Shown here: positions 2 to 44,956 of the stretch, in pieces | Numbering within the stretch: position 1 is the first letter of the stretch | Layout of the letters: every line of letters begins with the position of its first letter | DNA from: Deltaproteobacteria bacterium | Lineage (GTDB): Bacteria > Myxococcota > Kuafuiibacteriia > Kuafuiibacteriales > Kuafuiibacteriaceae | Length of the DNA stretch: 64,000 nucleotides | Reading direction: 5' to 3' | Assembly (NCBI GenBank): GCA_040218735.1 | Contig: JAVJQW010000057.1 | Span: 96,001-160,000 of the forward strand | Program-made: the position numbers and the translations under genes | Notes under the pieces: model-generated | The model's database searches: none | Told to the model about the DNA's origin: nothing | What the model saw: only the letters and a program-made list of their open reading frames with translations

Positions 2-2002
2 CTCAACCAGATCTTCCTCGGGAACCAGGCCTACGGCGTCCAGTCCGCGGCCGAGTACTACTTCCGGAAAGACGTCGCGGACCTGAACGTCGCGGAGATC
101 GCGCTGCTCGCCGGCCTGCCGCAGGCGCCGTCGCGGTACTCCCCGTTCTTACACCCCAAGCGCGCGAAGTCGCGCCGCGAGTACGTGCTGCGACGCATGC
201 TCGAGGAGGGCATCATCACCGAGACCGAGCTCCTCGAGGCCAAGGAGACGCCGATCGTCGTCTACTACGCGCCGAACGTGTCGCGCGAGGTGACGCCGTA
301 CTTCACCGAGCACGTCCGCCGCGAGCTGTTCGAGCGCTTCGACGAAAAGCAGGTCCTCACGGGCGGGCTGCAGGTCTACACGACGGTCGACGCCGAGCGG
401 TACCGCGCCGCCGAGGACTCCGTGTACGACAACCTCCGCATGGTCGACAAACGCCAGGGCTACCGCGGCCCGCTGGCGCGCATCCCGACCAAGGAGGGGC
501 GCGACAAGTTCCTGGAGGCCTACAGCGAGGAGCTGCGACACCTCGACCGCTACGCCAAGCTCGAGGACGGCGAGCTGTACGTCGGGATGATCACGAAGGT
601 CGACCGCAAGTCGAACAACATCGCGGTGAAGATCGGACCGCACGACGCGATCCTCCCGCTCGCCACGATGCGTTGGGCGCGCAGCGTCGACCCGCAGGTT
701 TGGTTCGAGCGCGGCCTCAACGACAAGATCCCGAAGAAGCGCCGAGAGGACGGCAAGTGGGTGAAGGCCTTCGAGCGCGGTGACCTCCTCCTCGTCCGCA
801 CCACGACGATGGAGGTGATCAAGAAGGATCGCTACGCGTACCCGTACCTCAAGTCGATCCCCAAGGACGCCGGACAGCTCGTCGCGCTCGAGCAGGAGCC
901 GAACCTCGAGACGGCCCTCCTCTCCGTCCACTCCGAGAGCGGCTACGTGATGGCGATGATCGGCGGCTACGCGTTCGACCGCAGCGAGTTCAACCGCGCG
1001 CTGCAGGCGTGCCGGCAGCCGGGATCTTCGTTCAAGCCGGTGGTGTACAGCGCGGCGCTCGCGCTCAAGGGCTGGACCGCCTCGACCAAGGTGCTCGACG
1101 CCCCCGTCGCGTTCGACGACCCCGAGGCGAAGCGCCGCTGGAAGCCGAGCAACTTCGACGTGAAGTTCATGGGCGAGGTCACGCTGCGGACCGCGCTGCA
1201 GAACTCGATGAACATCCCGGCCATCCGTGTCCTGGACGCGGTCGGCCTCGACGAAGCGATCACCTACGCGAAGCGCCTCGGCATCAAGAGCGAGCTGCGG
1301 CCCGAGCTGGGGCTCGCGCTCGGCGCGTCGTGTGTGACGATGGGTGAGCTCGCGAACGTCTACCAGCTGTTCGCCAACTACGGTCGGCGCGTCCCGCGCC
1401 GGTTCATCACCCGCGTGGTCGATCGCGACGGAAAGGTCCTCTTCGACGGCGGTTGGTACGGCGACCCGTGGTCGGGCGTCGCGCTCAAGATCGAGCGCGC
1501 GGTGCGGGAGACGGACGAGCCGCCGGAGCAGGTCATCGAGGAGCAGGTCGGCTTCCTCACCACGAAGCTCATGCGCAATGTGGTCCTCGGCGGCACCGGC
1601 ACCGGCGCGCAGCGCATCGGGGTACCGGTCGCGGGCAAGACCGGGACGACGAACGACAGCTTCGACGCCTGGTTCGTCGGCTTCACCACGGAGATCACCA
1701 CCGCGGCGTGGGTCGGCTACGACGACTACGTCATCCCGATGGGCCGCTACGAACAGGGCGGCCGCGCGGCGCTCCCGGTGTGGGTCGACTACATGAAGGC
1801 GGCGGTGAAGAAGAAGACCGACGAGTTCGAGCCTCCGGAGGACATCGTGTTCGTGCGCATCGACCCGAAGACCGGCATGCGCGCGCGCGCCGACACCGTG
1901 GGCTCGGTGCGTGAGGCGTACCGACGCGGGAGTGAACCCGAAGAGTTCGTCGCGAAGGCCGGTGAAGCGCGGCCCGACGAGTTCTTCATGCTCGACAACT
2001 GA
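2..2002 (+). CDS. mrcA: Penicillin-binding protein 1A family (transglycosylase/transpeptidase), 5'-truncated by the window edge
   Basis: Frame is open from base 2 (LNQIFLGNQAYGVQSAAEYYF...LAGLPQAPS, transglycosylase motifs). Transpeptidase motifs RQPGSSFK (SxxK), SMN (SxN) and KTGT are present. Confidence 0.93.
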   Translation, partial: LNQIFLGNQAYGVQSAAEYYFRKDVADLNVAEIALLAGLPQAPSRYSPFLHPKRAKSRREYVLRRMLEEGIITETELLEAKETPIVVYYAPNVSREVTPYFTEHVRRELFERFDEKQVLTGGLQVYTTVDAERYRAAEDSVYDNLRMVDKRQGYRGPLARIPTKEGRDKFLEAYSEELRHLDRYAKLEDGELYVGMITKVDRKSNNIAVKIGPHDAILPLATMRWARSVDPQVWFERGLNDKIPKKRREDGKWVKAFERGDLLLVRTTTMEVIKKDRYAYPYLKSIPKDAGQLVALEQEPNLETALLSVHSESGYVMAMIGGYAFDRSEFNRALQACRQPGSSFKPVVYSAALALKGWTASTKVLDAPVAFDDPEAKRRWKPSNFDVKFMGEVTLRTALQNSMNIPAIRVLDAVGLDEAITYAKRLGIKSELRPELGLALGASCVTMGELANVYQLFANYGRRVPRRFITRVVDRDGKVLFDGGWYGDPWSGVALKIERAVRETDEPPEQVIEEQVGFLTTKLMRNVVLGGTGTGAQRIGVPVAGKTGTTNDSFDAWFVGFTTEITTAAWVGYDDYVIPMGRYEQGGRAALPVWVDYMKAAVKKKTDEFEPPEDIVFVRIDPKTGMRARADTVGSVREAYRRGSEPEEFVAKAGEARPDEFFMLDN

Positions 2003-2799
2003 TGCTCCGCCGGGACACCAGGTTCGAAGCGCGCCGCGCGGCGGAGCGTCCCCCGGGCGGCGGCGGCCGTTCGCGTCGGATCGAGATGATCCAGTACGAG
2101 GAGGACGTCCCGCTGGTCGACCACAAGGGTCGCAGCAAGCCGCTCTACAAGGCGTCGCGCCCGAAGCCCGCGTCCTGGCGCCCCTCGCGCTTCACGCGTC
2201 TGATCCTCGGCTTGTTCCCCGGCGTCCGCGCGATGGCGCTCGCCGACATGAAGAACGGGCTGTTCTACGCCCTCCCCGGCATCGCGGTCGCGGTGACGGC
2301 GGTGCTGCTCTTCAACGCGTGGGCGAAGAGCTACGAGACGTTCCAGGTCCTCGCGATGAAGGAGAAGTGGCTCCTGTACCACGCCGCGGCGTTGCTCGGT
2401 GCGGTGCTGCTGTTCGAGCTCCTCCGCATGCTCGCCGCGCTCGACGAGAACATCCGCGGGCCCAGCGCGCCGCGCGCCCTCGCGGCGTTGTTCGTGCCGA
2501 GCCTCGCGGTCCTCTACGCCGCGCCGAAGGTCGTCAGCTTCTGGCCGCGCCTCGTCGAAGCCGCTGCGCTCGCCAGCGGCGTGCTCCTCCTCGGCGCCCT
2601 CCCCGCCGCGGTGTGGTCGATCGGTATGGCGTTCGCGCGCTCACCGCGCGCCGAGAAGATCTTGCGATGGACGTGCGTGGGCATCGGCGCGGTCGGCTTC
2701 CTCGCGGCTGGCGTCGTGTTCACGACGATGGGCGACACGGTGGCCGCTGCGCTCACGCGACGCGGCTTCGAAGTGCTCCCCGCGCTCCTCCTCGGCTAG
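2002..2799 (+). CDS. Hypothetical multi-pass membrane protein
   Basis: TGATG overlap with the PBP1A stop; about 5-6 hydrophobic segments; GC3-biased codons. Confidence 0.7.
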   Translation: MLRRDTRFEARRAAERPPGGGGRSRRIEMIQYEEDVPLVDHKGRSKPLYKASRPKPASWRPSRFTRLILGLFPGVRAMALADMKNGLFYALPGIAVAVTAVLLFNAWAKSYETFQVLAMKEKWLLYHAAALLGAVLLFELLRMLAALDENIRGPSAPRALAALFVPSLAVLYAAPKVVSFWPRLVEAAALASGVLLLGALPAAVWSIGMAFARSPRAEKILRWTCVGIGAVGFLAAGVVFTTMGDTVAAALTRRGFEVLPALLLG

Positions 2800-6288: not shown

Positions 6289-6591
6289 ATGGCCGACGAG
6301 CTGACGACGCAGATCCTCATCGAGATCCGCGACGCGACCCGCGCGACGAACGAGCGCCTGGACCGCGCCGTGGAGCGCCTGGACGGGCGCCTCGACGAGA
6401 CGAACCAGCGTCTGGATCAGACCAACGAGCGCCTGGGTATCCTCGCCAAGCTCACGCAGAGCATCGACGGCCGCCTCGAGAAGATCGAGGCGCGCGAGCC
6501 CGACCGGCTCTTCCTCCCGCGCCGCGTCGACCGCCTCGAAGCCGACCGCGACGATCACGAGGCCCGGCTCGCTGCGCTCGAGCGCGGTTGA
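6289..6591 (+). CDS. Hypothetical coiled-coil protein
   Basis: Heptad-like repeats TNERLD/VERLD/TNQRLD/TNERL; TTGACC -35-like hexamer upstream. Confidence 0.75.
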   Translation: MADELTTQILIEIRDATRATNERLDRAVERLDGRLDETNQRLDQTNERLGILAKLTQSIDGRLEKIEAREPDRLFLPRRVDRLEADRDDHEARLAALERG

Positions 6592-6633
6592 ACGCTTGCC
6601 TCCCGCGATCGGCGGACATAGCCTCCGCCGCCG

Positions 6634-6888
6634 ATGAACACCCGTACCCTCTTCGTCCTCGGCCTGTTCGGCGCCACTTTGGCCTGCGCCTCCCTCGACT
6701 CCGCCGCGAACAGCGGATCCGACATGGCCAAGAAGAACCTCGGTCACACGGACACGGCGACGAAGGCCGCCGTCGTCGACGAGAAGAAGGAAGCCGCCGA
6801 CATGGAGAAGGCCGCCGAGTCCGGGATGGAGAACGCCGAGGAGACGACCGAGGCGGAGACCGAGGCCGGCGCCGACAGCGGCGAATGA
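6634..6888 (+). CDS. Small acidic lipoprotein
   Basis: Signal peptide with lipobox (MNTRTLFVLGLFGATLA-C); E/A-rich tail. Confidence 0.7.
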   Translation: MNTRTLFVLGLFGATLACASLDSAANSGSDMAKKNLGHTDTATKAAVVDEKKEAADMEKAAESGMENAEETTEAETEAGADSGE

Positions 6889-6998
6889 ATCGGGAGCCCC
6901 CTTACTCCTCCTGAATTCTCGGAGCGTGGGGCGCGGCGCAATTCGCGCCTACCGAGTTTCGGTGACGATCGCGCATCCCTGCGCTACAACCTCCTTCG

Positions 6999-9185
6999 AT
7001 GAAGCCATCGATCCGCGGGTTCCTCGCGTGGGCGATGGCTCGCGCGATCGAGCGACCCGGCCTCGCGTTCGCGGGGCTCGCGGGGATCATCGTCCAGGTC
7101 GCGTGCTCCCTCGCGATGCCGCTGACGATGGAGTACCTGATCGACGACGTCATCCCGACGCAGGACTACGGGGCGCTCGCCGTCGCCGTGGGGATCGTCG
7201 CCGCCGCCACCCTCTCCTACTTCCTCGGCGGCCTCACCGTGGACTACACGACCTCGCGCCTCGCGGCGGCGATCGTTGGTGATGTCCGCCTGACGATGTT
7301 CCGCCGGGTGCAGACCGCGCCGGCGTCGTTCTTCGCGACGCACAGCGAAGGGGAGATCGTCACCCGCTTCGGCACCGACGCGATCACGATCGAGACCACG
7401 ATCATCCGCGCCCTCCCCGTCGCGATTCGCCGGTTCCTGAAGATCATCTGCGCCGGCGTGATCCTCTTCTCGATGGAGTGGCGCGTCGCGCTCCTAGTGT
7501 TCGCCGCGCTCCCGTTCACCATCCTCTTGTCGCGCCCGTTCGGGAAACGCGGCACCGCCGCCGACATCGAGCGCAAGGACGGCGAAGGCGAAGTCACGAA
7601 GCTCGTGCAAGAGAGCTTCGCTTCCCACATGGTCGTGCGCGCGTTCGAGCTCGAGGCGCACCTGGCGGATCGCTTCGGCGCCGCGCTCGAACACGTGCGC
7701 GCGACGAGCGCGCGGAGCAACATGCTCTACGCGACGACCGGGTCCGTCAGCTCCCTCGGCATCGCGGTCCTCGAGCTCGCGGTGATGGGGACGGGCGCGC
7801 TGGTCGTGGTCGGAGGCGGCATGACCGTCGGGCTCCTCGTCGCGTTCCTCGGACTGTTCCGCAACGTCTCGGCGGCCGCGCGCGGGCTGACCGAGATGAT
7901 GCCCACGCTCCTCAACGGGGCGACGAGCCTCGCGCGCACGTCGGACCTCCTCGCGCTCGTTCCCCCGGGCGTCGACGAGGGCGGAACGAAGCCGCTCGGC
8001 CCGCTCGCGAACGCCATCCGCTTCGAACGCGTGGACTTCGCATACGCGACGAGCAACGCCAGCGGTTCGAGCCCGCTCACCCTCGCCGGCGTCGAGCTGG
8101 AGCTCCCGGCCAAACGGCGCGTCGCTTTCGTGGGGCGCTCCGGGTCCGGCAAGTCGACGACGCTGTCGCTGTTGATGCGGCTGCAGGCGCCGACCGCCGG
8201 CCGCATCACGTACGACGGCGTCGACCTCGACGAAGCGCGCCCCTCCAGCCTCCGCGCGCAGACCGCGGTGGTCCTCCAGGACACCGGGCTGTTCGACGCG
8301 ACCATCCGCGAGAACATCCGGTGCGGTCGGCTCGACGCCGACACCGAGGCGATCGAACGTGCGGCGAAGCGCGCGCGCATCCACGACGTCATCGAGAGCT
8401 TCGAAGACGGCTACGACACGATCGTCGGCGCGCGTGGCGCACGACTCTCCGGCGGACAACGCCAACGTGTCGCCATCGCGCGCGCGCTCGTGCGTGACCC
8501 CTCGCTCCTCCTCCTCGACGAGGCGACCTCCGCGCTCGACCCCGCCGCGGAGGCCGAGGTGAACGACACCATCCGCGACGCGTGCGACGGCCAGACCGTG
8601 GTCGCCGTGACCCACCGTCTCAACTCGGTCGTCGACTACGACCTGATCGTGGTCTTCGACGGCGGGCGCGTCGTCGAGCGCGGCACACACCAGGAGCTCC
8701 TCGAATCCGGCGGCGTCTACGCGGACCTGTGGCAGAAACAGAGCGGCTTCGTCGTCAAACCCGACGGCAGCGACGCGCGCGTCAGCGCAGAGCGCCTGGA
8801 GCTGATCCCCTTCCTCGCGTCGGCGCCGCTGGAGGCGCTCCAGATCCTCGCCGACGATCTCCGCACCGCGCGCTTCGCTGCCGGCGAGGTCGTGTTCGAG
8901 GCCGGCGACCCCGGCGACCGCTTCTTCCTCATCGCGCGCGGACGCCTGGAGGCCTACCTGGGCGAAGGCGACGAAGCGCGCATCCTCAGCGTCATGGAGG
9001 ACGGTGACTTCTTCGGCGAGATCGCGCTCGTCGAAGCCGGCGTGCGCACCGCATCGGTGCGCGCGGTGACCGACAGCCTGTGCCTCACGCTCACGCGCGC
9101 GAAATTCGAGCGCCTCCTCGCCGAGCACCCGGCGCTGTCGCGTGAGGTGCTTCAGACCGCGCAGCGGCGACTCGCCAACGGGTAG
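6999..9185 (+). CDS. ABC exporter (TMD-NBD, MsbA/MdlB-like) with a C-terminal cyclic-nucleotide-binding domain
   Basis: N-terminal TM domain; Walker A GRSGSGKS, signature LSGGQRQR, Walker B LLLLDEATSALD, H-loop VTHRL; C-terminal GDPGDRFFLIARG...GDFFGEIAL...VRTASV. Confidence 0.92.
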   Translation: MKPSIRGFLAWAMARAIERPGLAFAGLAGIIVQVACSLAMPLTMEYLIDDVIPTQDYGALAVAVGIVAAATLSYFLGGLTVDYTTSRLAAAIVGDVRLTMFRRVQTAPASFFATHSEGEIVTRFGTDAITIETTIIRALPVAIRRFLKIICAGVILFSMEWRVALLVFAALPFTILLSRPFGKRGTAADIERKDGEGEVTKLVQESFASHMVVRAFELEAHLADRFGAALEHVRATSARSNMLYATTGSVSSLGIAVLELAVMGTGALVVVGGGMTVGLLVAFLGLFRNVSAAARGLTEMMPTLLNGATSLARTSDLLALVPPGVDEGGTKPLGPLANAIRFERVDFAYATSNASGSSPLTLAGVELELPAKRRVAFVGRSGSGKSTTLSLLMRLQAPTAGRITYDGVDLDEARPSSLRAQTAVVLQDTGLFDATIRENIRCGRLDADTEAIERAAKRARIHDVIESFEDGYDTIVGARGARLSGGQRQRVAIARALVRDPSLLLLDEATSALDPAAEAEVNDTIRDACDGQTVVAVTHRLNSVVDYDLIVVFDGGRVVERGTHQELLESGGVYADLWQKQSGFVVKPDGSDARVSAERLELIPFLASAPLEALQILADDLRTARFAAGEVVFEAGDPGDRFFLIARGRLEAYLGEGDEARILSVMEDGDFFGEIALVEAGVRTASVRAVTDSLCLTLTRAKFERLLAEHPALSREVLQTAQRRLANG

Positions 9186-9191
9186 GAGGGA

Positions 9192-9677
9192 TCAGCGCCG
9201 GAGCGCGGCGCGGATCTCGGCTTCGCTCGCCTGCAGCGACAGCGAGAGCAGGACGCCGTTGAGGCGCTGAACGTCCTTCGCGAGCTGACGCGCGACCGCG
9301 AGCTGGAACCGTCGCGACGCGGGGACACCGCTCTTCGCGAGGATGTCGAAAGCCGCCTTGCGGAGCGTGGCCGCGCGGACCGGCTCCATCGCGGTGCAGG
9401 TCGCCGTGCGGCGGCCGCCGTCGATGAGCGAGACCAACCCGAACAGCTGCCCGGGCCCGAGCTCGCCGAGGCGATCGACGCTGTCGCCTCGGCGCTGCGT
9501 GACCGCGACGCGGCCGGAGAGGATCAGGTACGCCTCGTGGCCCTTGTCGCCCTCCTCGGAGAAGACGTGGCCGGCGGGGTGGTTCGCGACCTCGAGGAGC
9601 GGCGCGAGCGCCGAGAGCTCCTCGGTCGAGAAGTCGGCGAGCAGCTCGCTCGCGACGAGCAGATCGTAGTCCTTCAC
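9192..9677 (-). CDS. Stand-alone cyclic-nucleotide-binding domain protein (no HTH)
   Basis: GTG start overlaps the upstream stop (GTGA, 9674-9677). VFSEEGDKGHEAYLILSGRV...GPGQLFGLVSLIDGGRRTATC. Confidence 0.85.
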   Translation of the reverse strand: MKDYDLLVASELLADFSTEELSALAPLLEVANHPAGHVFSEEGDKGHEAYLILSGRVAVTQRRGDSVDRLGELGPGQLFGLVSLIDGGRRTATCTAMEPVRAATLRKAAFDILAKSGVPASRRFQLAVARQLAKDVQRLNGVLLSLSLQASEAEIRAALRR

Positions 9678-10204
9678 GACGACGCGCCTCCCAGGAGCCG
9701 ACCGAACAGGCGGGTGACCCAGCCTTCGGACGGCGCTTCGTCGGCGGGCGCCTCGACGTGCACGGCGCCGTCTTCGCCCACGCCGAGCGTCGGCAGCCGC
9801 GCGGTGCGCAGGCGCGCCGCGAGCCGGGCGGAGAGCCCGGTGAGGAGCGCCGAGGCGGCGACGGGGTTGTCGGTCATCAGCGCTTCGAGGCCCGCGGCGT
9901 CGAGGGTCCACAGCGCGGTGTCGGCTTCGGCGGTGAGCGTCGTCGTCGACGGTCCGGGCTGCAGCAAGTCGACCTCGCCGACCCAGTCGCCCGGCTCGAC
10001 CGGCGGGAGCACGACGGTGCGCCCCTCCCGCTCGAGCGAGACCGTGAGCCGCCCGGACTCCACGAGGCACAGCATCGACGTGTCGGCGTTCGCGGCGACG
10101 ACCACCGCGCCCGCGGCGAAGGTCTGGCGCGTCAGGCTCGCCGCGACGGCGTCACGCTCGGCGCCGCTCGCGTTCGGCAACAGACGGTCGAGCTGCACGC
10201 TCAT
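9674..10204 (-). CDS. Stand-alone cyclic-nucleotide-binding domain protein
   Basis: Internal ATG at 10204 (MSVQLDRLL...). FAAGAVVV...LCLVESGRLTV...EPGDWVGEVDLLQPGPSTTTLTA. Confidence 0.8.
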   Translation of the reverse strand: MSVQLDRLLPNASGAERDAVAASLTRQTFAAGAVVVAANADTSMLCLVESGRLTVSLEREGRTVVLPPVEPGDWVGEVDLLQPGPSTTTLTAEADTALWTLDAAGLEALMTDNPVAASALLTGLSARLAARLRTARLPTLGVGEDGAVHVEAPADEAPSEGWVTRLFGRLLGGASS

Positions 10205-10238
10205 CGGCGGCGACCCTAGTACAGTTGGTCGGCATCGG

Positions 10239-11003
10239 CTACAGCGCGAAGCGCTGGCCGGGGCGCGCGAAGCCGAGGAAGCCGTCCGCCGCGGCGTCCG
10301 GCAACGCGCCGGGTGGATAGCCGTACAGCCAAGTCTTCGCGCGCACGTTCTTGGGGAGCTCTTCGACGAGCGTCGCGTACGTAGGGTGCGCCCCGGTCGG
10401 AGGCCCGCTCGTCTCGCAGTCGTGGAGCACGACGTCAGCCGTGTCGAACGCATCGTGCCACGCGTAGACGGTGTCGGTGGTGAGGAACACGGAGCGCTCG
10501 GCGCCGGTGATGAACAGCCCGTAGCTCGTGATCGTCCCCGCCGAGCCGATGATGTGCGGCGTCGGCACGAGCGACAGCTCGACGCCGTCCCACGTGAACG
10601 ACCCGCGCTCCGCGAGCGGCGCGAGCTCGAAGTACGTCGACAGCGTGCCCTCGGCGCCCACGGTGTGGCGCATGCCGCCGGACAGCACGTTGTTCCACAT
10701 CGGCTCGATGAGCGGTTCGGCCGCGAAGAGTGTGAGGCGCGGCGCCGAAGGATCGAAGTGCGTCGTGAAGCCGAGCCACTCGAGCCCGCCCGCGTGGTCC
10801 GCGTGAAGGTGGCTGATGTAGACCGCTTCGAGATCACGCGCGTGGACGCCGCGCACGAAGAGCGCGCGCCGGACGTCGCCGCCGCAGTCGACGAGGAGCC
10901 GCCGCCCGCTCGCGCCGGTGAGGAGGAGGTTCGACTGGTAGTTGTCGGGGTCCGTGGTGAACGCGGAGCCGGTACCGAGGAACTCGAGCGTCGGTGAGGT
11001 CAT
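10239..11003 (-). CDS. Metallo-beta-lactamase-fold hydrolase, Apyc1-like putative cNMP phosphodiesterase
   Basis: FLGTGSAF, LLVDCG, SHLHADHAGGLE (HxHxDH), PTPH, TTDT, HDCE and GAHP motifs. Confidence 0.85.
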   Translation of the reverse strand: MTSPTLEFLGTGSAFTTDPDNYQSNLLLTGASGRRLLVDCGGDVRRALFVRGVHARDLEAVYISHLHADHAGGLEWLGFTTHFDPSAPRLTLFAAEPLIEPMWNNVLSGGMRHTVGAEGTLSTYFELAPLAERGSFTWDGVELSLVPTPHIIGSAGTITSYGLFITGAERSVFLTTDTVYAWHDAFDTADVVLHDCETSGPPTGAHPTYATLVEELPKNVRAKTWLYGYPPGALPDAAADGFLGFARPGQRFAL

Positions 11004-12697
11004 TTGGTCTCCAGCTTCAGTACGGCCGGCGCCGTCGGATCCGTCTTTGCGCGTTCGACGTTCCGGGCGAGGAGACGCGACGGACCGTCATGGTCGGGCA
11101 ACGTCTCCAATACACGCTCTGCCTCCGCATAGTCTCCCGCTCCGAACGCATCGATCGCCGTTTCGTAGAGATCCCGCGTCGGTCCCCACTCCGCGGCCGA
11201 CCGCAGCTCGTACAGCTCGATCGGATCGTCGACCCCCACCACCTGCGTCGCGCCGACGTGACGCGTCGAAAGCTCCGTCACCGACGCGTAGAGCGTCGCC
11301 TGCGACAACAGGATCGCGACCCCCGCGTGTTTCGTCGCGCCCTCGATCCGGCTCGCGAGGTTCACCGTGTGCCCGCGCGGCCCATACTTCTGACGCATCT
11401 TGCTCCCGGCGTTGCCCACGAGCGCGGACCCCGTGTGGAGGCCGACGCCGATCGACAGCGGCGTGCCGATTCGATCGCGCCAGGTCGTGTCGAGCGCCGC
11501 GACGTCGTCGACCATCGCGAGCGCGGCGTGGCAGGCCCGCCCCGCCGGGTCGTCCTGGGGGAGCGGCGCGTTCCACATCGCGGCCATGCCGTCGCCGTAG
11601 TAATCGATCACCACGCCGCCCGCCTCGTGCACGCGCGCGGTGAGCGCGTCCATCACCTCGCCGACGAGCGCGAAGATCTGCGTGGGGTCGAGCCGCTCGG
11701 ACAGACGCGTGAAGCCGCGGAGGTCCGTGAACAGGACGGTGATGGTGCGCTCCGCCGGCTCGAGCATCGTGGGGTCGCGCTCGAGCTCGCGGACCAGCTT
11801 CGGCGAGAAGACCCGCTCGAACTGCACGCGCAGCCGCCCGGCCTCCGCTTCGCGTTCCATGCGCGCGAGCCCCGCGGACACCGCCGCCGCGAGGACCTGG
11901 ACGACCTGCGCTTCGAGCGGCTCGACCGCCGGCAGGTGCACCCCCGGCTTTCGATCGCGCGCACCGAAGACCGCACCGATCGGCTCACCGCCCGCGCCGA
12001 AGATCGGAGACGCGACGAACGCGTCGACCGCGACGAGGCTCGCCGCCGCTTGGTTCGGCCGGTGGTAGACGGTCTGCTGCGTGCGGAGCACTTCGTTCAG
12101 GACGGTCTGGCTGAAGGCTTCACCGGACGCACCGTCGGCGGCGTGCGCGGCGGCGACCTTCCACGCACCGTCGTCCTGGAGCAGGACCAGCCCGCGGTCG
12201 AGGCCGATCAGATCGACGATCGCGCGTGCCGTCTCGGCGTAGAACGCCGCCGACCCCGCCGCCGCGCGCTGCACCGACAGCAACGTCTGGAACCACTCCG
12301 CGAGGCGCTCCACGGTCGGCGCGCGTTCGAGGGTCTTCGGCGACGCCGCGCGCACGATCGTCCGCAGCACCATCGAACCCTCGGACTGTTCCGGCAGCTC
12401 GGTCGCGTAGATCTCGATCTTCGTGCCGCCCGCGAGCACGGTGGCGGGGAGCGCGAACGTCCCGCTCTCGCCGGTCGCGAGCGCGCCCTGCGCTTCGATC
12501 GTCAGGGTTGCGCCGTGATTGGTGAGGCGGACGCCACCTTCCGCTTCTTCGACGGTGAGCTGCACGCGCGAAACACGCGGATCACGCACGACGAAACAAC
12601 GACCCGCACCGACGGGAGCGCGCCCCAGGAGGAGGGGCCCGTCGTCGTGGCGGAACGTCTGGACCTGCTCGACGTTGCTGACGGTCAGCTCCAGCAC
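11000..12697 (-). CDS. FHA-like + GAF + class III nucleotide cyclase
   Basis: N-terminal LGR...VSR (FHA-like), central GAF-like region, cyclase motifs VLFTDLRGFT, DYYGDG, GLHTG and TVNLASRIEG. ATGA overlap with the downstream gene. GTG start. Confidence 0.92.
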   Translation of the reverse strand: MLELTVSNVEQVQTFRHDDGPLLLGRAPVGAGRCFVVRDPRVSRVQLTVEEAEGGVRLTNHGATLTIEAQGALATGESGTFALPATVLAGGTKIEIYATELPEQSEGSMVLRTIVRAASPKTLERAPTVERLAEWFQTLLSVQRAAAGSAAFYAETARAIVDLIGLDRGLVLLQDDGAWKVAAAHAADGASGEAFSQTVLNEVLRTQQTVYHRPNQAAASLVAVDAFVASPIFGAGGEPIGAVFGARDRKPGVHLPAVEPLEAQVVQVLAAAVSAGLARMEREAEAGRLRVQFERVFSPKLVRELERDPTMLEPAERTITVLFTDLRGFTRLSERLDPTQIFALVGEVMDALTARVHEAGGVVIDYYGDGMAAMWNAPLPQDDPAGRACHAALAMVDDVAALDTTWRDRIGTPLSIGVGLHTGSALVGNAGSKMRQKYGPRGHTVNLASRIEGATKHAGVAILLSQATLYASVTELSTRHVGATQVVGVDDPIELYELRSAAEWGPTRDLYETAIDAFGAGDYAEAERVLETLPDHDGPSRLLARNVERAKTDPTAPAVLKLETK

Positions 12698-12826
12698 ACT
12701 TCAGACCTACTGCGGCGGGCCCTCGCGCGCAAAGTGCGCCTGATTCCGTACTTCGGCGGGGCAGGTGCGTTTTTAGGCGCCAAAAAATGGCGGCTTCCCC
12801 CGAACGACGCTACGACGCCCGGCGTC

Positions 12827-13213
12827 ATGAATGGACTCGAGACGAACGGACTGCCGCTCCTCGTCGGCGCGGCCCTGCTTCTCGCCTGGGCAGCCACGGC
12901 GATCTTCGTGACGCGGACGTCCTCGCTGCGAACGAGCGCGCGTTACCTGCACGCGGTGCTGAGCTTCCCCGTCGCGCTGCTGCTCCTCCCGCTGGTCGCG
13001 TGGGGCGCGGCGACGATCGCGCCGCACCTGGAGCCGATGCTCCTCGCGCAGCCCGCGTTGATCGCGTCGATGTCGGTCGGCGGCCGCTCCTTCCTCACGG
13101 AGACCCTCGCCATCGGCCTCGCCGGCGCGCTCCCGGCGCTCCTCTTCTGGCGCTACTGCCGCTTCATCGAACACCGCGAGGCGCGCACGCTCGAACGGCT
13201 CCGCACCGAGTAG
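12827..13213 (+). CDS. Hypothetical membrane protein
   Basis: C-terminal part of the track ORF 10994..13213, starting at ATG 12827 (MNGLETNGLPLLVGAALLLAW...); three hydrophobic helices. Confidence 0.7.
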   Translation: MNGLETNGLPLLVGAALLLAWAATAIFVTRTSSLRTSARYLHAVLSFPVALLLLPLVAWGAATIAPHLEPMLLAQPALIASMSVGGRSFLTETLAIGLAGALPALLFWRYCRFIEHREARTLERLRTE

Positions 13214-13216
13214 CGC

Positions 13217-13271
13217 GTTCGAAAAGTCCGAACGAAACTCCGAAAATCGGACGCCGCATTCGGTTTTCGGA
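13217..13271. promoter_or_regulatory. Three phased imperfect palindromes (candidate activator-binding sites)
   Basis: GTTCGAAAAGTCCGAAC (13217-33), TCCGAAAATCGGA (13239-51) and TTCGGTTTTCGGA (13259-71); centres 20 bp apart. Confidence 0.45.
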
Positions 13272-13309
13272 CGAACGCCCGCACGCAGGGCGAAAACCTG
13301 CGGATGTCG

Positions 13310-14845: not shown

Positions 14846-16150
14846 ATGGTGACGACCGTGAAGCAAGAAGACTCCGGCATCGAGAGCCCCGAAGCGCTCC
14901 GCCGCCGACTGGCCGAGCTCGGCGGCGACGCCGAGGACGCCTACCAGTTCGGCGCCCCGCCCGAGGATCTGCCGAGCCTCGAGCCGGCCGTCCCCACGCG
15001 CGTGACCGACGCGCCGGGCGTCCGCATCGAGGAGGTCAACCTGCGCGACAAGAAGGCCCGCGCACGTTTCATCGACATGCCCGAGCCGCTCTACGTGGGC
15101 GACCCGAACTACATCGCGCCGCTGAGGATGCACCTGATGCGCTTCCTCAACCCGTACGCGAACCCGGCGTTCAAGAACCTCGAGGTGCGCGCCATCCTCG
15201 CTTACCAGGACGGCAAGTGTGTCGGTCGCATGACGATGCAGATCGATCGCGCCTACGACGCGTACCACGAGACGAAGGCGGGCTTCTTCGGGTTCTTCGA
15301 GTGCGTGAACGACAAGAAGGTCGCGCACAAGATGTTCGACGACGCGGTCGCGTGGCTGAAGGAACGCGGCGCGCGTGAGTGGTACGGGCCGATGAACCTG
15401 ACCACGAACCACCAGGCGGGGCTCCTCGTGGAGAACTTCGACCGGCCGCCGTTCATCGAAGAGGGTTACAACCCGAGCTTCTACGAGGAGCTGTTCACGT
15501 CGTACGGCTTCGGCAAGGCGAAGGACCTGCTGGTGTGGTGGATCGAGGTCTCCAACGGGATGGAGACCAAGAACCGCAAGCGCGTCAAACGCATCGCGGA
15601 GCGGATCATGAAGCGCGAGGGGGTGGTGTTCCGCAACATCGACCTCGCGGACGCCGACGGTGAGATCGACCGGATGTTCGAGCTCTACCTGAAGGCCTGG
15701 CAGAAGAACTGGGGCTTCGTGCCGCTCAGCAAGGAAGAGTTCACGTGGCTCGCGCAGGACCTCAAGCAGGTCGCGATCCCGGAGCTCGTGTTGTTCGTCG
15801 AGCTCGACGGCAAACCGGTCGGCTTCTGCGCGACGCTGCCGAACGTGAACGAGGTGCTCCCGAAGGACGGCAAGCTGTTCCCGTTCGCGTGGATCAAGCT
15901 CCTCGGCGGACGCATCAAGAAGACGAAGCACGCGCGCCTCTACACGCTGGGGATGTTGCCCGAGTATCGAAAGCGCGGGCTCGAAGCGATGATGTTCTCG
16001 GAGACGCTCGAGCGCGCGCAGCGCATCGGCATCAGCGCCGGGGAGATCGGTTGGACGCTCGACGACAACACGCTGATCAACCGGGCGATCGAATCGATGG
16101 ACGGCTACGTCGACCGCCGGTACCGCATCCTCGGCATCAACCTGGACTGA
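14846..16150 (+). CDS. Tandem-GNAT acyltransferase, YghO / bacterial ceramide synthase-like
   Basis: LYVGDPNYIAPL, NPAF, VGR, GFFGFFEC, GPMNLTTN, GLLVENFDRPP, YNP, AWQKNWGFVP, LGMLPEYRKRG and EIGWTLDDN motifs. Confidence 0.8.
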   Translation: MVTTVKQEDSGIESPEALRRRLAELGGDAEDAYQFGAPPEDLPSLEPAVPTRVTDAPGVRIEEVNLRDKKARARFIDMPEPLYVGDPNYIAPLRMHLMRFLNPYANPAFKNLEVRAILAYQDGKCVGRMTMQIDRAYDAYHETKAGFFGFFECVNDKKVAHKMFDDAVAWLKERGAREWYGPMNLTTNHQAGLLVENFDRPPFIEEGYNPSFYEELFTSYGFGKAKDLLVWWIEVSNGMETKNRKRVKRIAERIMKREGVVFRNIDLADADGEIDRMFELYLKAWQKNWGFVPLSKEEFTWLAQDLKQVAIPELVLFVELDGKPVGFCATLPNVNEVLPKDGKLFPFAWIKLLGGRIKKTKHARLYTLGMLPEYRKRGLEAMMFSETLERAQRIGISAGEIGWTLDDNTLINRAIESMDGYVDRRYRILGINLD

Positions 16151-16154
16151 CGGC

Positions 16155-17618
16155 GTGAGCAAGTCCGCCACGCCCTCCGAGGCCGCCTCGATCCTCCTCA
16201 CGACGGCGGACGGGACCGTGCTCGTCGGGCAGCGCGCCCGGTCCATCCCGTTCCTCGGGAGCTACCTGTCGTTCCCGGGCGGCCGCGTCGAGGACGAGGA
16301 CCACGCGCTCGCCGCGCGGCTCTTCCCGGGTGACCCGCTCGCCGTCCGCAAGATCGCCGGGCTGCGGGAGCTGGAGGAAGAGACGGGGCTCACGGTCGAC
16401 GGGCCGCACGCCGTTCGCGCGGAGGGGGACTTCGCAACGCGTCTTGCGAACGTCGACCTGTCGCGCTTCGTCCCCGCGGGGCGCTGGGTCACGCCGGACT
16501 ACTCCCCCGTCCGCTACGACACGCACTTCTTCCAGTACGTCGTCGACGACTTCGACGAACCGACCGTCGGCGTCGAGAGCCCCGAGTTCGAGTGGCTCCG
16601 CTTCGAGCCCGCGGACAAGCTCGTGCGGGAGTGGTACGCGCTGCAACACCTGCTGTCGCCGCCCGCGCTCGTCGCGCTCGAGTGCCTGCAGTACGGCGCC
16701 GCCGAGGCGCCGCGCCGAATCCTGCAGCACCCCGGCGCGCGCGCCGAAGACCACCACGAGTTCGAGGCGCTCCCCGACGTCCGCATCTACGCGTTGCGCA
16801 CGCCGACGCTCCCGCCGGCGGAGACGACCAACGCCGTCGCGATCGGACGCGAGCGGATCCTCGTCGTCGACCCCGCGACGTACGACGACGACGAACGCGA
16901 CAAGCTCCTCGTCCACCTCGAAGCGCTCACGGCGCGCGGCGCGACGATCGAGGCGATCGTCCTGACGCACCACCACTTCGATCACGTCGGCGCCGCCAAG
17001 TGGCTCGCGCCGCGCGTGGGCGCGCCGGTCATCGCGCACGCCATCACGAAGGAGCTCCTCGGCGACAAGATCCGCATCGACGCGACGATCGAGGAGGGCC
17101 ACGTCTTCGACCTCGGCACCGACCGCCGCGGTGAGCCGTTCACGGTCGAGGTCCTGCACACGCCGGGTCACGCACCCGGGCACGTCGTGCTCGTCGACCG
17201 GCGCCCCGGCGCGCGCCTCATGATCGTCGGCGACATGGTCGCGGCGATCGGCACGATCATCGTGGACCCGCCCGAGGGCAACATGGCCGAGTACCTGCGA
17301 CAGCTCGAACGGCTCGCGGCGATGGACGAGTCGATCCTCATCCCGGCGCACGGCCCGCCGATCGTCGAGGGGCGCCGACACCTGAAGCGGTACGTCGCGC
17401 ACCGGCGCATGCGCGAGAGCAAGGTCGTCGCCGCGCTCGAACACCACGGCCGAGGCTCGGCGTCGGAGCTGCTCGACGTCGCGTACGACGACACGCCCAA
17501 ACACCTGTACCCGCTCGCGGCGCGTTCCTGCCTCGCGCACCTCGAGAAGCTCGTCGAGGATGGTCGCGCGATACGCGAGGGGGACCGCTTTCGCCTCGCG
17601 AGCGATTCCGGCGCATAA
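16155..17618 (+). CDS. NUDIX hydrolase + LACTB2-like MBL-fold fusion
   Basis: FPGGRVE...RELEEETG (Nudix box), WVTP...RYDTHFF; then TLPPAETTN, THHHFDH, HTPGHAPGH, GDM, PAHG. Confidence 0.9.
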   Translation: MSKSATPSEAASILLTTADGTVLVGQRARSIPFLGSYLSFPGGRVEDEDHALAARLFPGDPLAVRKIAGLRELEEETGLTVDGPHAVRAEGDFATRLANVDLSRFVPAGRWVTPDYSPVRYDTHFFQYVVDDFDEPTVGVESPEFEWLRFEPADKLVREWYALQHLLSPPALVALECLQYGAAEAPRRILQHPGARAEDHHEFEALPDVRIYALRTPTLPPAETTNAVAIGRERILVVDPATYDDDERDKLLVHLEALTARGATIEAIVLTHHHFDHVGAAKWLAPRVGAPVIAHAITKELLGDKIRIDATIEEGHVFDLGTDRRGEPFTVEVLHTPGHAPGHVVLVDRRPGARLMIVGDMVAAIGTIIVDPPEGNMAEYLRQLERLAAMDESILIPAHGPPIVEGRRHLKRYVAHRRMRESKVVAALEHHGRGSASELLDVAYDDTPKHLYPLAARSCLAHLEKLVEDGRAIREGDRFRLASDSGA

Positions 17619-24195: not shown

Positions 24196-26787
24196 TCACG
24201 ACGTCGCGCGACGACGGCGGACCCACAACACCAGGCCGAGCCCGAGCAGCCACACCGAAGCGCTCGGGTTGTTCCCGACGACCGCCGCGCAACCGCCCGG
24301 CTCGCCCCCCGGACGCTCGATCGGTGGCTCGACGACCCGAATGGACAGCGCGCGCTGCGCGGTGCGGCCCTCCTGATCCATCACGCGGACCAGGAGCGAC
24401 GCCTCGCCGGAGCTCATCGGCGTTCCGACGATGCGGAACGAACCGTCCGCGTTGGTGTCGCCGAGCAGCCCCTGCGGAAGTGCCCCCTCCACGACGTCCC
24501 AGACGTAGGGCGCCGCGCCGCCTTCCGCGTCGATGAGCGCCGCGTAGGCTTCACCGACGGTGCCGGCCGGGAGCGACGCGGTGACGATCTCCAGCGCGCC
24601 GTCGTCGCGGATGTCGATCGTGACGGCGTCGACGTCGCGACCCGCCACGCCCGTGGCGACCGAGTCGCGGACCCGAACGCCGAAGTAGTAACGCCCGGCG
24701 ACGCGCGGCGTGCCTTCGAGGAGGCCCGACGGGTCGAGGGTGAGGCCCGGCGGGAGCGTTCCGAACTCCGTCGTGAACACGTACGGCGCGACGCCGCCCA
24801 TCGCTTCGAACTGGTGAGCGAAGGACTCGCCGATGCGCCCGTCGGGGACGGCCTGCGTGACGAACGAGAGCTGACCCGATTCGATGACCTGCAACATGAA
24901 GACACGTTCGGCGGTCGACGTGCCGTCCGACGCCGTGACCGTGACCTCGAACGTCCCGACCTCGTACGGCGTCCCGACGACACGGCCGGTTTCGAGCATC
25001 ATGAGCGCGTCGGGCAGCCCTGTCGCGGACCAGGTGAACGTCCCGCCCTCACCGCCGGTCGCTACGAACGCGAGGTCGTACTCACGCCCGACGACGCCGA
25101 CCGGGACGCCGCGCGTGACGATCGTCAGCGGCTCCGCGGGATCCGCGACGCACAGCATGAAGGCCTGCTCGTCGGTACCGACGCCGTCCGCGGCGCGCAC
25201 CGTGAACGACTCGCATCCGACGTCGCTGGGGCGACCGAAGATCTCGCCCGTCGTTTCGACGATCCCGAGCCCGTCGGGGAGCTGCCCCGCCTCGATGGTG
25301 AATGCGAGCGGGCCCTCGGCGCCGAGGGTCTGGATCAGCGCGAGGTAGGGGACGGAGGCGAGCGGCTGCGGGAGGCGCGTCGTGACGATCGCGATTCCGT
25401 TGCCGCGGATGTCGATCGGGTTCGGCGCGGCTGCGGCGTTGTTGCTGCGGGACAGCTCGTCCTGCGTGCGCGCCGGATCCGCGACGACGCCGATCGTGTA
25501 GCGCCCACTCGCGATGCCCGAGGGGATCATCGCGTCGAACGTGACCTGCCGGACCTCGCCGGCGGCCAACGTGACCGGCTGGCGCGTCAGCTCGAGGTCG
25601 CCCGCGGTCACCGCGGGGTTCGAGGACAAAAAGACACCGACGTCGGCGGCCGCGCCCATGTCGGCGCCGACGTTCTCGAGTCGCGCCGTCACACGAATCA
25701 CGTCGCCGGCGGCCGCGGTGGTGGCGTCGACGGCGACGGCCTGCACCGCGACGTCCGGTTCCCCGCGGATGAAGCGCGAGCTGGTGACGACGACGTTGTT
25801 GTCCTCGTCGAACTCTGCGAGCGCGTCACCGGAGTCCGCGAACACGACGAGCGCCGCGGTCCCGACGCCGACGCTCGTGGGAGCGACGACCGGCACCGTG
25901 ACGATGCTCGTGGCGTACGCCGGCACGTCGACCTGCGCGACGCCCGCGGAGACGCCATTGCCGACGGTACCGTTCGGCGAGACGAACACCTCGACGTCGA
26001 TCGGCCCGGTGACGACACCGTGGCGGTTCGTGACCTCCACGTCGACGGTGCGGGCGACACCCAGCGGGATGAACGCGGGGGCGACGACGTCGGTCACCTC
26101 GATCTCGACGCCCGGGTCCTGGACGACGGTGATGCGGGTCCCGGACAGCGCGGTGAAGTCGGCGCCGGTGCAGTTCGTCGTGCAGGTGCGGAACAAGATC
26201 TCGCGTCCGCCCATGTCGTCCTCCATCGCCATCGTCGCGGACGCGGAGCTGACGCCCTGGTTCGGGCCGTAGTCGATCTCGATGCGCCCGGCCGAGCCCT
26301 CGTAGAGGCGAACCTGGAAGCTGACGAGATCGGCGGGGGAGCAGCCGCTGATGTTGAGGCGCTTCCACTCGAACACCGCGACGCGCGCCGGCGCCGTCCC
26401 GAGGATGGAGTAACCAAGCGAGCCGTTGTCGGCGGTGCAGAACTGCGAGGTATCCCAGAAGGGGGCGATCCAACCGTTCGGCGTGCTCGTAGATCCGGGG
26501 GTGGCGTTGACGTTGGAGACGGTCGATCCGGCGCCCATGATCATCGCCCCGTCGGTCCCGAAGCTCACGGAGTTGTACGTCCGGTCGTAGAAGAGGAAGT
26601 CGAACGGGAGGTTCACGTCGCCCGTGCTGGTCAGGGTGTTCGTGAACAGGACCGTCGGGCTCGTCAGCTCCGTATAGGTGATGGGCTGGGAGAAGCGGAC
26701 ATAGGGCGTGCCCGGTACGAGCTGGGCCAACGCCGTGGAGGGCAGCGCGAGCGCGCCGAGGGTCACCAGGGATGCGAATCGGTTCAT
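24196..26787 (-). CDS. Large surface protein with CARDB-like and putative Ig repeats and a MYXO-CTERM-like anchor
   Basis: Signal MNRFASLVTLGALALPSTALA-Q (ATG 26787); AEFDEDNN and DELSRSNN (CARDB-like); four Ig-like repeats of the LPxG(L)...I/VxGxP type; C-terminal GGC-AAV...WLLGLGLVLWVRRRR. Confidence 0.85.
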   Translation of the reverse strand: MNRFASLVTLGALALPSTALAQLVPGTPYVRFSQPITYTELTSPTVLFTNTLTSTGDVNLPFDFLFYDRTYNSVSFGTDGAMIMGAGSTVSNVNATPGSTSTPNGWIAPFWDTSQFCTADNGSLGYSILGTAPARVAVFEWKRLNISGCSPADLVSFQVRLYEGSAGRIEIDYGPNQGVSSASATMAMEDDMGGREILFRTCTTNCTGADFTALSGTRITVVQDPGVEIEVTDVVAPAFIPLGVARTVDVEVTNRHGVVTGPIDVEVFVSPNGTVGNGVSAGVAQVDVPAYATSIVTVPVVAPTSVGVGTAALVVFADSGDALAEFDEDNNVVVTSSRFIRGEPDVAVQAVAVDATTAAAGDVIRVTARLENVGADMGAAADVGVFLSSNPAVTAGDLELTRQPVTLAAGEVRQVTFDAMIPSGIASGRYTIGVVADPARTQDELSRSNNAAAAPNPIDIRGNGIAIVTTRLPQPLASVPYLALIQTLGAEGPLAFTIEAGQLPDGLGIVETTGEIFGRPSDVGCESFTVRAADGVGTDEQAFMLCVADPAEPLTIVTRGVPVGVVGREYDLAFVATGGEGGTFTWSATGLPDALMMLETGRVVGTPYEVGTFEVTVTASDGTSTAERVFMLQVIESGQLSFVTQAVPDGRIGESFAHQFEAMGGVAPYVFTTEFGTLPPGLTLDPSGLLEGTPRVAGRYYFGVRVRDSVATGVAGRDVDAVTIDIRDDGALEIVTASLPAGTVGEAYAALIDAEGGAAPYVWDVVEGALPQGLLGDTNADGSFRIVGTPMSSGEASLLVRVMDQEGRTAQRALSIRVVEPPIERPGGEPGGCAAVVGNNPSASVWLLGLGLVLWVRRRRATS

Positions 26788-26876
26788 TTCACCCCCAACG
26801 TTCCCGGCGGTCGCGAATTCCTTCACCACCTCCTGAGAACTCGCCCCGCCCGATGGGGCCTGGTATCGTCCACTGT

Positions 26877-44862: not shown

Positions 44863-44956
44863 CCTTTCGGATGCTAGTGAAAAACCGAACGCGCCACAAA
44901 GGCGGCGCCCGCCGTCCTTGCCGTGGCCGACCCGAGCCGCTAACGCGGGGTCGTAG

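Follow-up and report, generated by a model that had tools for sequence, protein, structure and literature searches.

Five adjacent genes in a deltaproteobacterial genome (assembly GCA_040218735.1, contig JAVJQW010000057.1, positions 96,001 to 160,000; this 64-kb stretch is hereafter the window) probably form a chromosomal, insulated signalling cassette that runs on a cyclic nucleotide monophosphate (cNMP). As proposed here, the cassette consists of a regulated cyclase, a metallo-beta-lactamase-fold (MBL) phosphodiesterase, an ATP-binding cassette (ABC) exporter gated through a cyclic nucleotide-binding (CNB) domain, and two small CNB proteins, cNMP1 and cNMP2, in an accessory role. All of the parts belong to known families, so that the cassette does not amount to a new kind of system: judged from sequence, it is a lineage-specific version of a recurrent design made up of a cyclase, a phosphodiesterase resembling the anti-Pycsar protein Apyc1, and a variable CNB output. 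The five genes and their principal domains are as follows (aa, amino acids):

6999..9185, plus strand: ABC exporter, 728 aa, ABCB-type half-transporter with a C-terminal CNB domain
8871..9128, plus strand: CNB domain of the exporter, with the canonical cassette FGEIALVEAGVRTAS (FGE...RTA)
9192..9677, minus strand: cNMP2, 161 aa, GTG start, stand-alone CNB protein
9674..10204, minus strand: cNMP1, 176 aa, stand-alone CNB protein
10239..11003, minus strand: MBL, Apyc1-like phosphodiesterase, 254 aa
11000..12697, minus strand: cyclase (FHA-GAF-class III), 565 aa
11210..11749, minus strand: class III catalytic domain of the cyclase (residues 317-496), Pfam PF00211 Guanylate_cyc, 63 bits against a cut-off of 21.9
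11873..12241, minus strand: GAF domain of the cyclase (residues 153-275), Pfam PF01590, 24 bits against a cut-off of 22.4
12398..12697, minus strand: FHA-fold domain of the cyclase (residues 1-100), from AlphaFold2 and Foldseek

The five-gene block and its conservation

The genes of the block are closely packed. The cyclase stop codon overlaps the MBL start codon (ATGA), the cNMP1 stop overlaps the cNMP2 start (GTGA), 34 nucleotides (nt) separate MBL from cNMP1, and the exporter and cNMP2 converge stop to stop across a 6-nt gap (9185/9192); the contiguity, overlaps and gap had been described in an earlier note made from the sequence alone, and were confirmed on the sequence. Because they are packed so tightly, the four minus-strand genes look co-transcribed and partly translationally coupled. 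All five cNMP-related genes are contiguous among the roughly 50 to 55 genes of the window, and no further cyclase, CNB or Apyc1-like MBL gene was found when the six-frame open reading frames (ORFs) of the whole 64 kb were searched with phmmer. A back-of-envelope calculation gives a chance of about 51/C(55,5), or about 1.5e-5, for such contiguity under random placement, far too low for the clustering to be accidental.

All five genes recur, with order and orientation unchanged, in a metagenome-assembled genome (MAG) on a 10.9-kb contig of 71% GC (locus L001), with identities of 59% for the cyclase, 73% for the MBL protein, 66.5% for cNMP1, 81% for cNMP2 and 79% for the exporter. There cNMP1 and cNMP2 overlap by ATGA, and 3 nt lie between the convergent stops. 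Homology detected by tblastx between L001 and positions 1-24000 of the window is confined to the module; since the block is the same and the flanks are unrelated, the five genes travel as a block, which bears out their earlier description as a module. A third copy on one 11,054-bp contig is likely but unproven: the proteins P0003 (MBL, 69% identity), P0127 (cyclase, 57%) and P0243 (exporter, 75% over the C-terminal region) each list a longest contig of that length. In L001 the cyclase gene is also flanked by a divergent gene (580-2535, minus strand) for a Ser/Thr kinase fused to an FGE-sulfatase domain, and this kinase is a plausible source of a phosphothreonine signal for the FHA domain. No kinase gene adjoins the cyclase in the window, where kinase-like ORFs lie at 38596-40293 and 40933-45207.

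Domains were called with Pfam at the gathering score, and the flanks and the FHA region were rescanned at E<=1. The domains claimed in the earlier note were all recovered by Pfam above the gathering score, save for the FHA domain, which was recovered with AlphaFold2 and Foldseek instead. Its statement that the module contains no helix-turn-helix (HTH) domain agrees with the Pfam results for all five proteins, and its failure to recognise the architecture as a named system was likewise borne out. No NCBIfam equivalog is reached by any of the five proteins (the cyclase is without any NCBIfam match), PADLOC matches cover shared domains only, and no named system for the five-gene layout was found in NCBIfam, PADLOC or our literature searches, which, here and below, did not extend to most subscription journals and give weak evidence of absence.

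The module has the composition of its surroundings: its GC content (0.69-0.72) and the GC3 of the three listed module frames (0.89-0.92) are the same as in the rest of the window. The flanking genes are unrelated and of housekeeping type (penicillin-binding protein, aldo-keto reductase, epimerase, GNAT, citrate transporter), and a Pfam scan of 17 flanking ORFs found no phage, mobile-element or defence domains. Two further features adjoin the cyclase:

12698..12829: intergenic region ahead of the cyclase, where the gene layout alone places the presumed promoter of the four-gene operon
12830..13213, plus strand: divergent small membrane-protein gene, sharing this intergenic region with the cyclase

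A sigma-70 consensus scan of 6500-13300 returned 0 promoter-like sites, a result that is uninformative for a genome of 70% GC, and a terminator scan of the same interval returned 3 terminator-like sites against 2.3 expected, which is equally uninformative. Elsewhere in the window, a NUDIX, Lactamase_B and BLACT_WH fusion (16077-17615, plus strand) lies 3.4 kb off the module and belongs to a different MBL family, with no evident link to the module; a protein of about 930 aa (24199-26997, minus strand) carries He_PIG and CARDB Ig-like repeats with a weak C-terminal PEP-CTERM match.

The cyclase, the phosphodiesterase and their linkage across bacteria

The MBL protein scores 77.3 bits against the Pfam family Anti-Pycsar_Apyc1 (PF23023; cut-off 50), in addition to matching Lactamase_B. 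In the PDB it matches Apyc1 (7u2s, E 9.7e-24; also 7t28 and 7u2r) and is much nearer to it than to Bacillus subtilis YhfI (6kns, E 2.3e-4) or RNase Z. Its motif SHLHADH has the form [T/S]HxHxDH, given as the motif of 'atypical class II' phosphodiesterases in the available part of one study (PMC9293780), and residues H65, H67, D69, H70, H150, D177 and H206 are invariant in an alignment of 25 homologues. Among 4821 candidates, 1340 were homologous at E<=1e-5, and all 120 of those listed carry the Apyc1 Pfam family. On these features the protein falls within the Apyc1, or atypical class II, family and is predicted to hydrolyse 3',5'-cNMPs. As far as the accessible text of Hobbs et al. (PMC9117128) goes, bacterial Apyc1-like proteins cleave cNMPs broadly, and the cellular role of the family is left open.

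The window protein shares the Pfam family, the motif, the metal ligands and a length of about 250 aa with Apyc1, YhfI and Rv1339. It differs in that its gene is chromosomal, has no phage genes near it and is coupled in translation to that of a class III cyclase, which points to a housekeeping and not a counter-defence role. The possibility that the gene is prophage-borne was considered and rejected for the window, given the lack of phage domains in the flanking ORFs. Against NF041851, a cyclic nucleotide-degrading phosphodiesterase equivalog that we guess to be of Rv1339 type, the protein scores 30 bits versus 400.

For the catalytic domain of the cyclase the closest PDB match is 2w01, Cya2 of Synechocystis (E 3.9e-25), and 3r5g and 1wc1 were also aligned. 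The window cyclase and all 120 listed homologues have both metal-binding Asp residues as well as the Asn and Arg of the transition state; with all of the catalytic residues of a class III cyclase in place, the enzyme is predicted to be competent. Its first substrate position is an Asp, three residues before an invariant GDG in a gap-free alignment, its second is a Gly, and a Ser stands at the position of a Tyr in Cya2. The resulting signature, D..D..D..G..N..R, takes the form D-D-D-G-N-S-R in the family and is found in 109 of 121 sequences (the window cyclase and the 120 listed homologues). The family is large: scoring of the 8000 best candidates gave 1223 relatives of full-length type at E<=1e-10. 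Its named members come from Planctomycetota (Anatilimnocola, Pirellulales) and 'Deltaproteobacteria' MAGs.

In the available text of PMC4215837, adenylyl cyclases follow a Lys-Asp/Thr rule and guanylyl cyclases a Glu-Cys/Gly rule, and Cya2 is described as a bacterial guanylyl cyclase whose substrate pair is Glu-Gly and whose guanylyl cyclase activity is enhanced by a Tyr. The adenylyl rule does not hold for the Asp and Gly of the window cyclase, and the Cya2 rule fails at two of three residues (Asp for Glu, Ser for Tyr). A FastTree phylogeny built from 62 catalytic domains recovers the Asp-Gly sequences as one clade (support 0.997) and the Glu-Gly sequences as another (0.873), and the node that joins them also takes in Lys-Thr and Gln-Thr/Ser sequences, with support of 0.48. 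The cGMP circuit that the earlier note had suggested as a possibility is therefore not established: Cya2 is the nearest structure, but the Asp-Gly pair and the Ser depart from it, and the tree does not place the Asp-Gly clade as sister to the Cya2 clade. The Asp-Gly pair appears nearest to the guanylyl pattern (an acidic residue and a Gly); our literature searches returned no account of FHA-GAF cyclases of the Asp-Gly clade or of their product. Besides the Gly at the second substrate position, the window shares with Cya2 a writer-eraser-reader layout that is common to the cyanobacterial cya2-type pairs described below. It differs not only in the two substituted residues but also in having FHA-GAF in place of CHASE2 and in belonging to the separate, well-supported clade.

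The catalytic domain is preceded by two predicted sensor domains, and the assigned start codon of the cyclase fits the family consensus 'ML'. The GAF domain is kept across the cyclase family. For the N-terminus Pfam gave no match to an FHA or Yop-YscD family, even at E<=1. An AlphaFold2 model of residues 1-135, made from an alignment of 52 sequences, has block-mean predicted local distance difference test (pLDDT) values of 91-94 over residues 1-100, and a Foldseek search of the PDB with it returned FHA domains as 8 of the first 10 matches (for example 3poa, 3oun and 3gqs; probability 1.00), the other two being FHA-like N-terminal domains of type III secretion proteins. Template modelling (TM) scores normalised to the target were 0.60-0.79 over these ten. 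Of the FHA loop residues, the family never varies at G25, R26 or S43 and hardly at N60, and Gln46 occupies what we take to be the His position of the SxxH motif. The N-terminus of the cyclase is thus modelled as an FHA beta-sandwich with conserved loop residues.

The pairing of cyclase and phosphodiesterase extends well beyond the window. Scanned against species-representative genomes, the 25-sequence MBL alignment matched 599 stretches, of which 463 proved to be relatives; the 80 best of these loci were retained, and their six-frame ORFs were searched with the window proteins. In 38 of the 80, MBL has a same-strand class III cyclase gene no more than 200 nt away (upstream in 37, downstream in one), and 55 have either an adjacent cyclase or a CNB gene within 2.5 kb; cyclase matches more than 1 kb from MBL number only 9 in 1.07 Mb of flank. 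The cyclase-MBL pair is much older than the window lineage. In several phyla this MBL family is linked to genes for class III cyclases and CNB proteins, which makes credible the eraser role that the MBL protein had been given earlier.

The partner cyclases are of four unrelated architectures. Those with a Glu-Gly pair, in 34 loci that are mostly cyanobacterial, lie directly upstream of MBL (33 intact, one split in two ORFs), and the sole example tested with Pfam, in L024, has a CHASE2 N-terminus. These loci are L002, L008, L009, L015-L017, L024, L027, L028, L034-L036, L038, L039, L041, L042, L044, L046, L049-L051, L054-L057, L060, L062, L064, L067, L068, L073, L074, L076 and L079; in L036, a Synechocystis MAG, a 756-aa cyclase lies 26 nt upstream of MBL. 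MASE2-GAF-cyclases with Lys-Thr are found in Legionellales/Coxiellaceae (L072 and L078, with Pfam run on L078), a kinase-STAND-GAF-cyclase with Lys-Thr in a chlamydial MAG (L023), and FHA-GAF-cyclases with Asp-Gly beside MBL in L001 and the window. The cyanobacterial MBL protein beside a Cya2-type cyclase is a candidate cognate cGMP phosphodiesterase. In the accessible parts of two reviews (PMC4284465, PMC10117731), slr2100 is the only cGMP phosphodiesterase named for cyanobacteria, and our literature searches returned no account of an MBL gene beside cya2, nor of class II phosphodiesterases paired with cyclases.

CNB outputs vary among these loci. An MscS-type channel with a C-terminal CNB domain often lies downstream of the cyanobacterial pair (L021 10902-12383 and L062 4999-6477, Pfam on both; similar ORFs of about 490 aa in L014, L017, L038, L050, L055, L068 and L076) and is another membrane-transport output of the same cassette design, and a CNB-only protein stands beside the pair in L024 and L057. 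In all 10 Burkholderiales/betaproteobacterial loci a CNB gene lies within 2.5 kb of MBL. In eight proteobacterial MAGs, mostly Burkholderiales (L006, L007, L010, L013, L026, L029, L037 and L066), MBL lies between a divergent gene for a CNB protein of about 231 aa and a gene for one of about 745 aa, without an adjacent cyclase; in L006, on which Pfam was run, these two are a CRP-family regulator and a protein that joins two CNB domains to an NTE-P-loop domain and a patatin lipase domain, and L006 encodes a second CRP-family regulator as well.

The exporter and the small CNB proteins

The CNB cassette contacts its ligand through a Glu, to the ribose 2'-hydroxyl, and an Arg, to the phosphate. Of the three CNB domains of the module, only that of the exporter has both canonical contacts in alignment. 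The earlier note's count of three cNMP-binding domains, read as three readers, was therefore overstated: it stands for the exporter, whereas cNMP1 (PF00027, 53 bits; cassette GEVDLLQPGPSTTT) has Ser in place of the phosphate-binding Arg when aligned to 2pqq and 5j3u, and cNMP2 (PF00027, 62 bits; cassette FGLVSLIDGGRRTATC) has Leu in place of the ribose-binding Glu when aligned to 3d0s. The L001 orthologues keep both losses, with Ala at the Arg position of cNMP1.

In the exporter, Pfam finds ABC_membrane at residues 26-288 (PF00664, 127 bits), ABC_tran at 363-511 (PF00005, 116 bits) and cNMP_binding at 625-710 (78 bits). Its translation contains what we take to be the Walker A (GRSGSGKST), signature (LSGGQRQR), Walker B (LLLLDEATSALD) and H-loop (VTHRL) motifs, and on its sequence the protein is assigned to the ABCB-type exporters (type IV fold). 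The C-terminal region gave 423 matches at E<=1e-5 among 4343 candidates, and ABC_membrane, ABC_tran and cNMP_binding occur together in 100 of the 120 best matches, from several phyla. Both the Glu and the Arg of the cassette are found in 100 of 101 aligned ABC-CNB proteins (the window exporter and 100 listed homologues, one of them the window sequence again). The NCBIfam matches are generic (MsbA-like, 359 bits where the cut-off is 780) and give no clue to the cargo, and the literature searches returned no experimental study of ABC exporters with a C-terminal CNB domain.

HetC, an ABC exporter of Nostoc, has an N-terminal CNB domain which, according to the accessible text of PMC10986499, bound ppGpp and not cAMP. 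So far as that text allows, HetC and the cyanobacterial TIGR03896 proteins resemble the window in joining an ABC exporter with CNB domains, in one protein or as accessory proteins. The window exporter differs from HetC in that its CNB domain is C-terminal and has a canonical cassette, and in that it is without a C39 peptidase domain; against TIGR03896, the model of cyanobacterial 'bacteriocin-type transport-associated' CNB proteins, the window gives weak scores of 29.7 and 23.2, far under the cut-off of 161. A soluble ABC ATPase with two CNB domains (520 aa) was also noticed in a cyanobacterial MAG (L028, 3697-5259), 4.7 kb from the cyclase-MBL pair, and shows a different manner of coupling ABC ATPases with CNB domains.

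The small proteins resemble CRP/FNR regulators in that their best matches are CRP-family CNB domains (3d0s, 2pqq) and in that they are modelled as a dimer through their C-helices. They differ in having no HTH domain, in the proposed hetero- and not homodimer, and in that each is without one cassette contact; their scores against the CRP equivalog of NCBIfam are 19 and 25, versus a cut-off of 266. In the ESM Atlas, cNMP1 lies beside clusters of CNB-only proteins of about 190 aa, commonest in Myxococcota. Close relatives of cNMP2 form only one cluster, P0361 (68% identity); among the 1.84 billion representatives of the library, 10 proteins matched at E<=1e-30. Among the best 150 matches, none of the 42 stand-alone relatives (210 aa or less; P0361-P0504) has Glu at the cassette position; this subfamily of about 150-200 aa mostly reads FG[LI]...R[ST]ATC, with Leu or Ile in most and the Cys kept in most. 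Since Glu is absent from all 42 and the Cys is mostly kept, the cNMP2 cassette is best seen as a selected variant and not the product of decay.

The predicted complex of cNMP1 and cNMP2 scored 0.87, against 0.01 for the best of 3 controls. As a rough guide, own alignments being used, that score is attained by 116 of 157 solved complexes and by 2 of 215 mismatched pairs. At least 85% of contacts are common to the three runs, the pLDDT of the partners is at least 83, and the predicted interface is made up of the C-helices and the cassettes. The models suggest that cNMP1 and cNMP2 probably form a CRP-like heterodimer via their C-helices, and the pair is most likely an accessory of low affinity or altered specificity, not a pair of classical receptors. 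At the end of cNMP1, a tail, GWVTRLFGRLLGG (residues 161-176, window 9674-9724), follows a variable linker and is identical in L001. None of its residues is listed at the modelled interface, and it may be a docking peptide for another partner.

The proposed circuit and its alternatives

From the domain content, the catalytic residues and the conservation set out above, we infer each functional step of the circuit as follows. Contact with phosphothreonine at the FHA domain, a ligand at the GAF domain, or both, would turn the cyclase on, and the enzyme would then make a 3',5'-cNMP whose base its Asp-Gly pair, fitting neither the adenylyl nor the guanylyl rule, does not specify. The co-expressed phosphodiesterase, presumably of broad specificity, would keep the signal brief and local. 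The messenger would bind the CNB domains of the exporter (two per homodimer) and alter its ATPase activity and transport, so that the output would be export and not transcription; the placing of the exporter as circuit output is by inference only. The cNMP1/cNMP2 pair could serve as a buffer, as an adaptor, or as a regulator of the cyclase, the phosphodiesterase or the exporter.

Several observations weigh against this circuit or against parts of it. The exporter is on the opposite strand and hence is a separate transcription unit, and the whole five-gene layout was found in only one of the 80 sampled loci (L001). Neither a cyclase nor a CNB gene is nearby in 25 of the 80 MBL loci, and the 38 adjacent pairs are not independent, 30 of them coming from records titled cyanobacteria. 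Two of the three CNB domains are without one canonical contact, and CNB domains can bind other ligands, as with HetC and ppGpp in the accessible text of PMC10986499. CRP-type dimers are abundant among solved structures, so that the complex score may reflect likeness to them and does not prove that this pair binds.

These points lend themselves to other readings of the locus. One is that it holds two units, in which the cyclase-phosphodiesterase-CNB operon signals and the exporter, adjoining it by descent or by chance, answers the general cNMP pool. The opposite strand, and with it a separate promoter, is what such an arrangement would entail, and the ABC_membrane-ABC_tran-cNMP architecture is common on its own; an exporter of this type is paired with MBL only in L001 among the 80 loci. 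We nevertheless regard it as unlikely, for the exporter has been kept stop to stop with the operon (6 nt in the window, 3 nt in L001) despite differing flanks and a cyclase identity of 59%, and the proteins P0003, P0127 and P0243 make up a probable third case. The exporter might instead pump the cyclic nucleotide itself, as a second route of removal or as an intercellular signal, with the CNB domain as a substrate sensor. The host is probably a myxobacterium, from a group with multicellular behaviour, and by analogy only, human ABCC4 is treated as a cAMP exporter in the available text of PMC11948813; set against this, the generic NCBIfam matches of the exporter and the rest of its sequence carry no evidence for a cNMP cargo, and we hold this reading to be quite improbable. 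More room must be given to the possibility, which we entertain without favouring it, that cNMP1 and cNMP2 do not read the cyclase product and have another ligand or none, and another function. The absent Arg and Glu, both kept absent in L001, the selected variant form of the cNMP2 cassette and the ppGpp-binding CNB domain of HetC (in the same part of PMC10986499) are all consistent with it. Against it, the two genes follow immediately on those of the cyclase and phosphodiesterase within the operon of both genomes, with translational coupling; and this reading of the pair would be compatible with the proposed circuit for the remaining three genes.

A further alternative is a Pycsar-like anti-phage defence, in which the cyclase would make a cyclic (pyrimidine) nucleotide on infection, the CNB proteins and the CNB-exporter would be effectors, and the Apyc1-like enzyme would be a self-protecting brake. 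A class III-like cyclase together with CNB-domain proteins is indeed a likeness to Pycsar: the catalytic domain scores 79 bits against the PADLOC PycC model PDLC00734, and the CNB domains of the module match PADLOC PycTIR/effector models at E 1e-7 to 4e-12. The MBL protein belongs to the family named after Apyc1, the Asp-Gly substrate pair is non-canonical, and regulation of Pycsar by a host Apyc1 is raised in the accessible text of Hobbs et al. (PMC9117128). The PADLOC matches, however, cover the shared cyclase and CNB domains only (model positions of about 30-147 of about 290-306 for the effectors), none was obtained for MBL, and neither a TIR domain nor a Pycsar-type transmembrane effector was matched by Pfam or PADLOC. 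Unlike Pycsar, the window has a large cyclase with FHA and GAF sensors, belonging to the family of 1223 proteins, and a resident phosphodiesterase, and it lies in housekeeping surroundings of native composition with no mobile-element or defence domains. We consider a defence function very improbable, and the chromosomal cNMP cassette with an export output remains the reading that we propose.

The cassette touches on several questions in the biology of these families, its points of interest being the Asp-Gly clade, Apyc1-family enzymes beside cyclases, CNB-gated exporters, and a possible heterodimer of half-degenerate CNB domains. What the Apyc1 family does in the cell is one such question: in 38 of 80 sampled species it is encoded next to a class III cyclase, the cyanobacterial Cya2-type guanylyl cyclases among them. 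The widespread ABC-CNB architecture raises the question of whether a cyclic nucleotide gates such exporters directly, a predicted CRP-like heterodimer whose two defective pockets are complementary raises that of its ligand, and a large Asp-Gly cyclase clade raises that of its nucleotide product. As a bolder and rather unlikely extension, the Asp-Gly FHA-GAF cyclases (more than 1000 proteins) might have a product other than cAMP: cGMP, to an extent unrecognised in bacteria, or a non-canonical housekeeping cNMP, with the broad-specificity Apyc1-like enzyme as its native eraser and the variant CNB pair and the CNB-exporter as dedicated receptors. If that were true, the phage 'anti-Pycsar' enzyme family would have a cellular origin in circuits of this kind.

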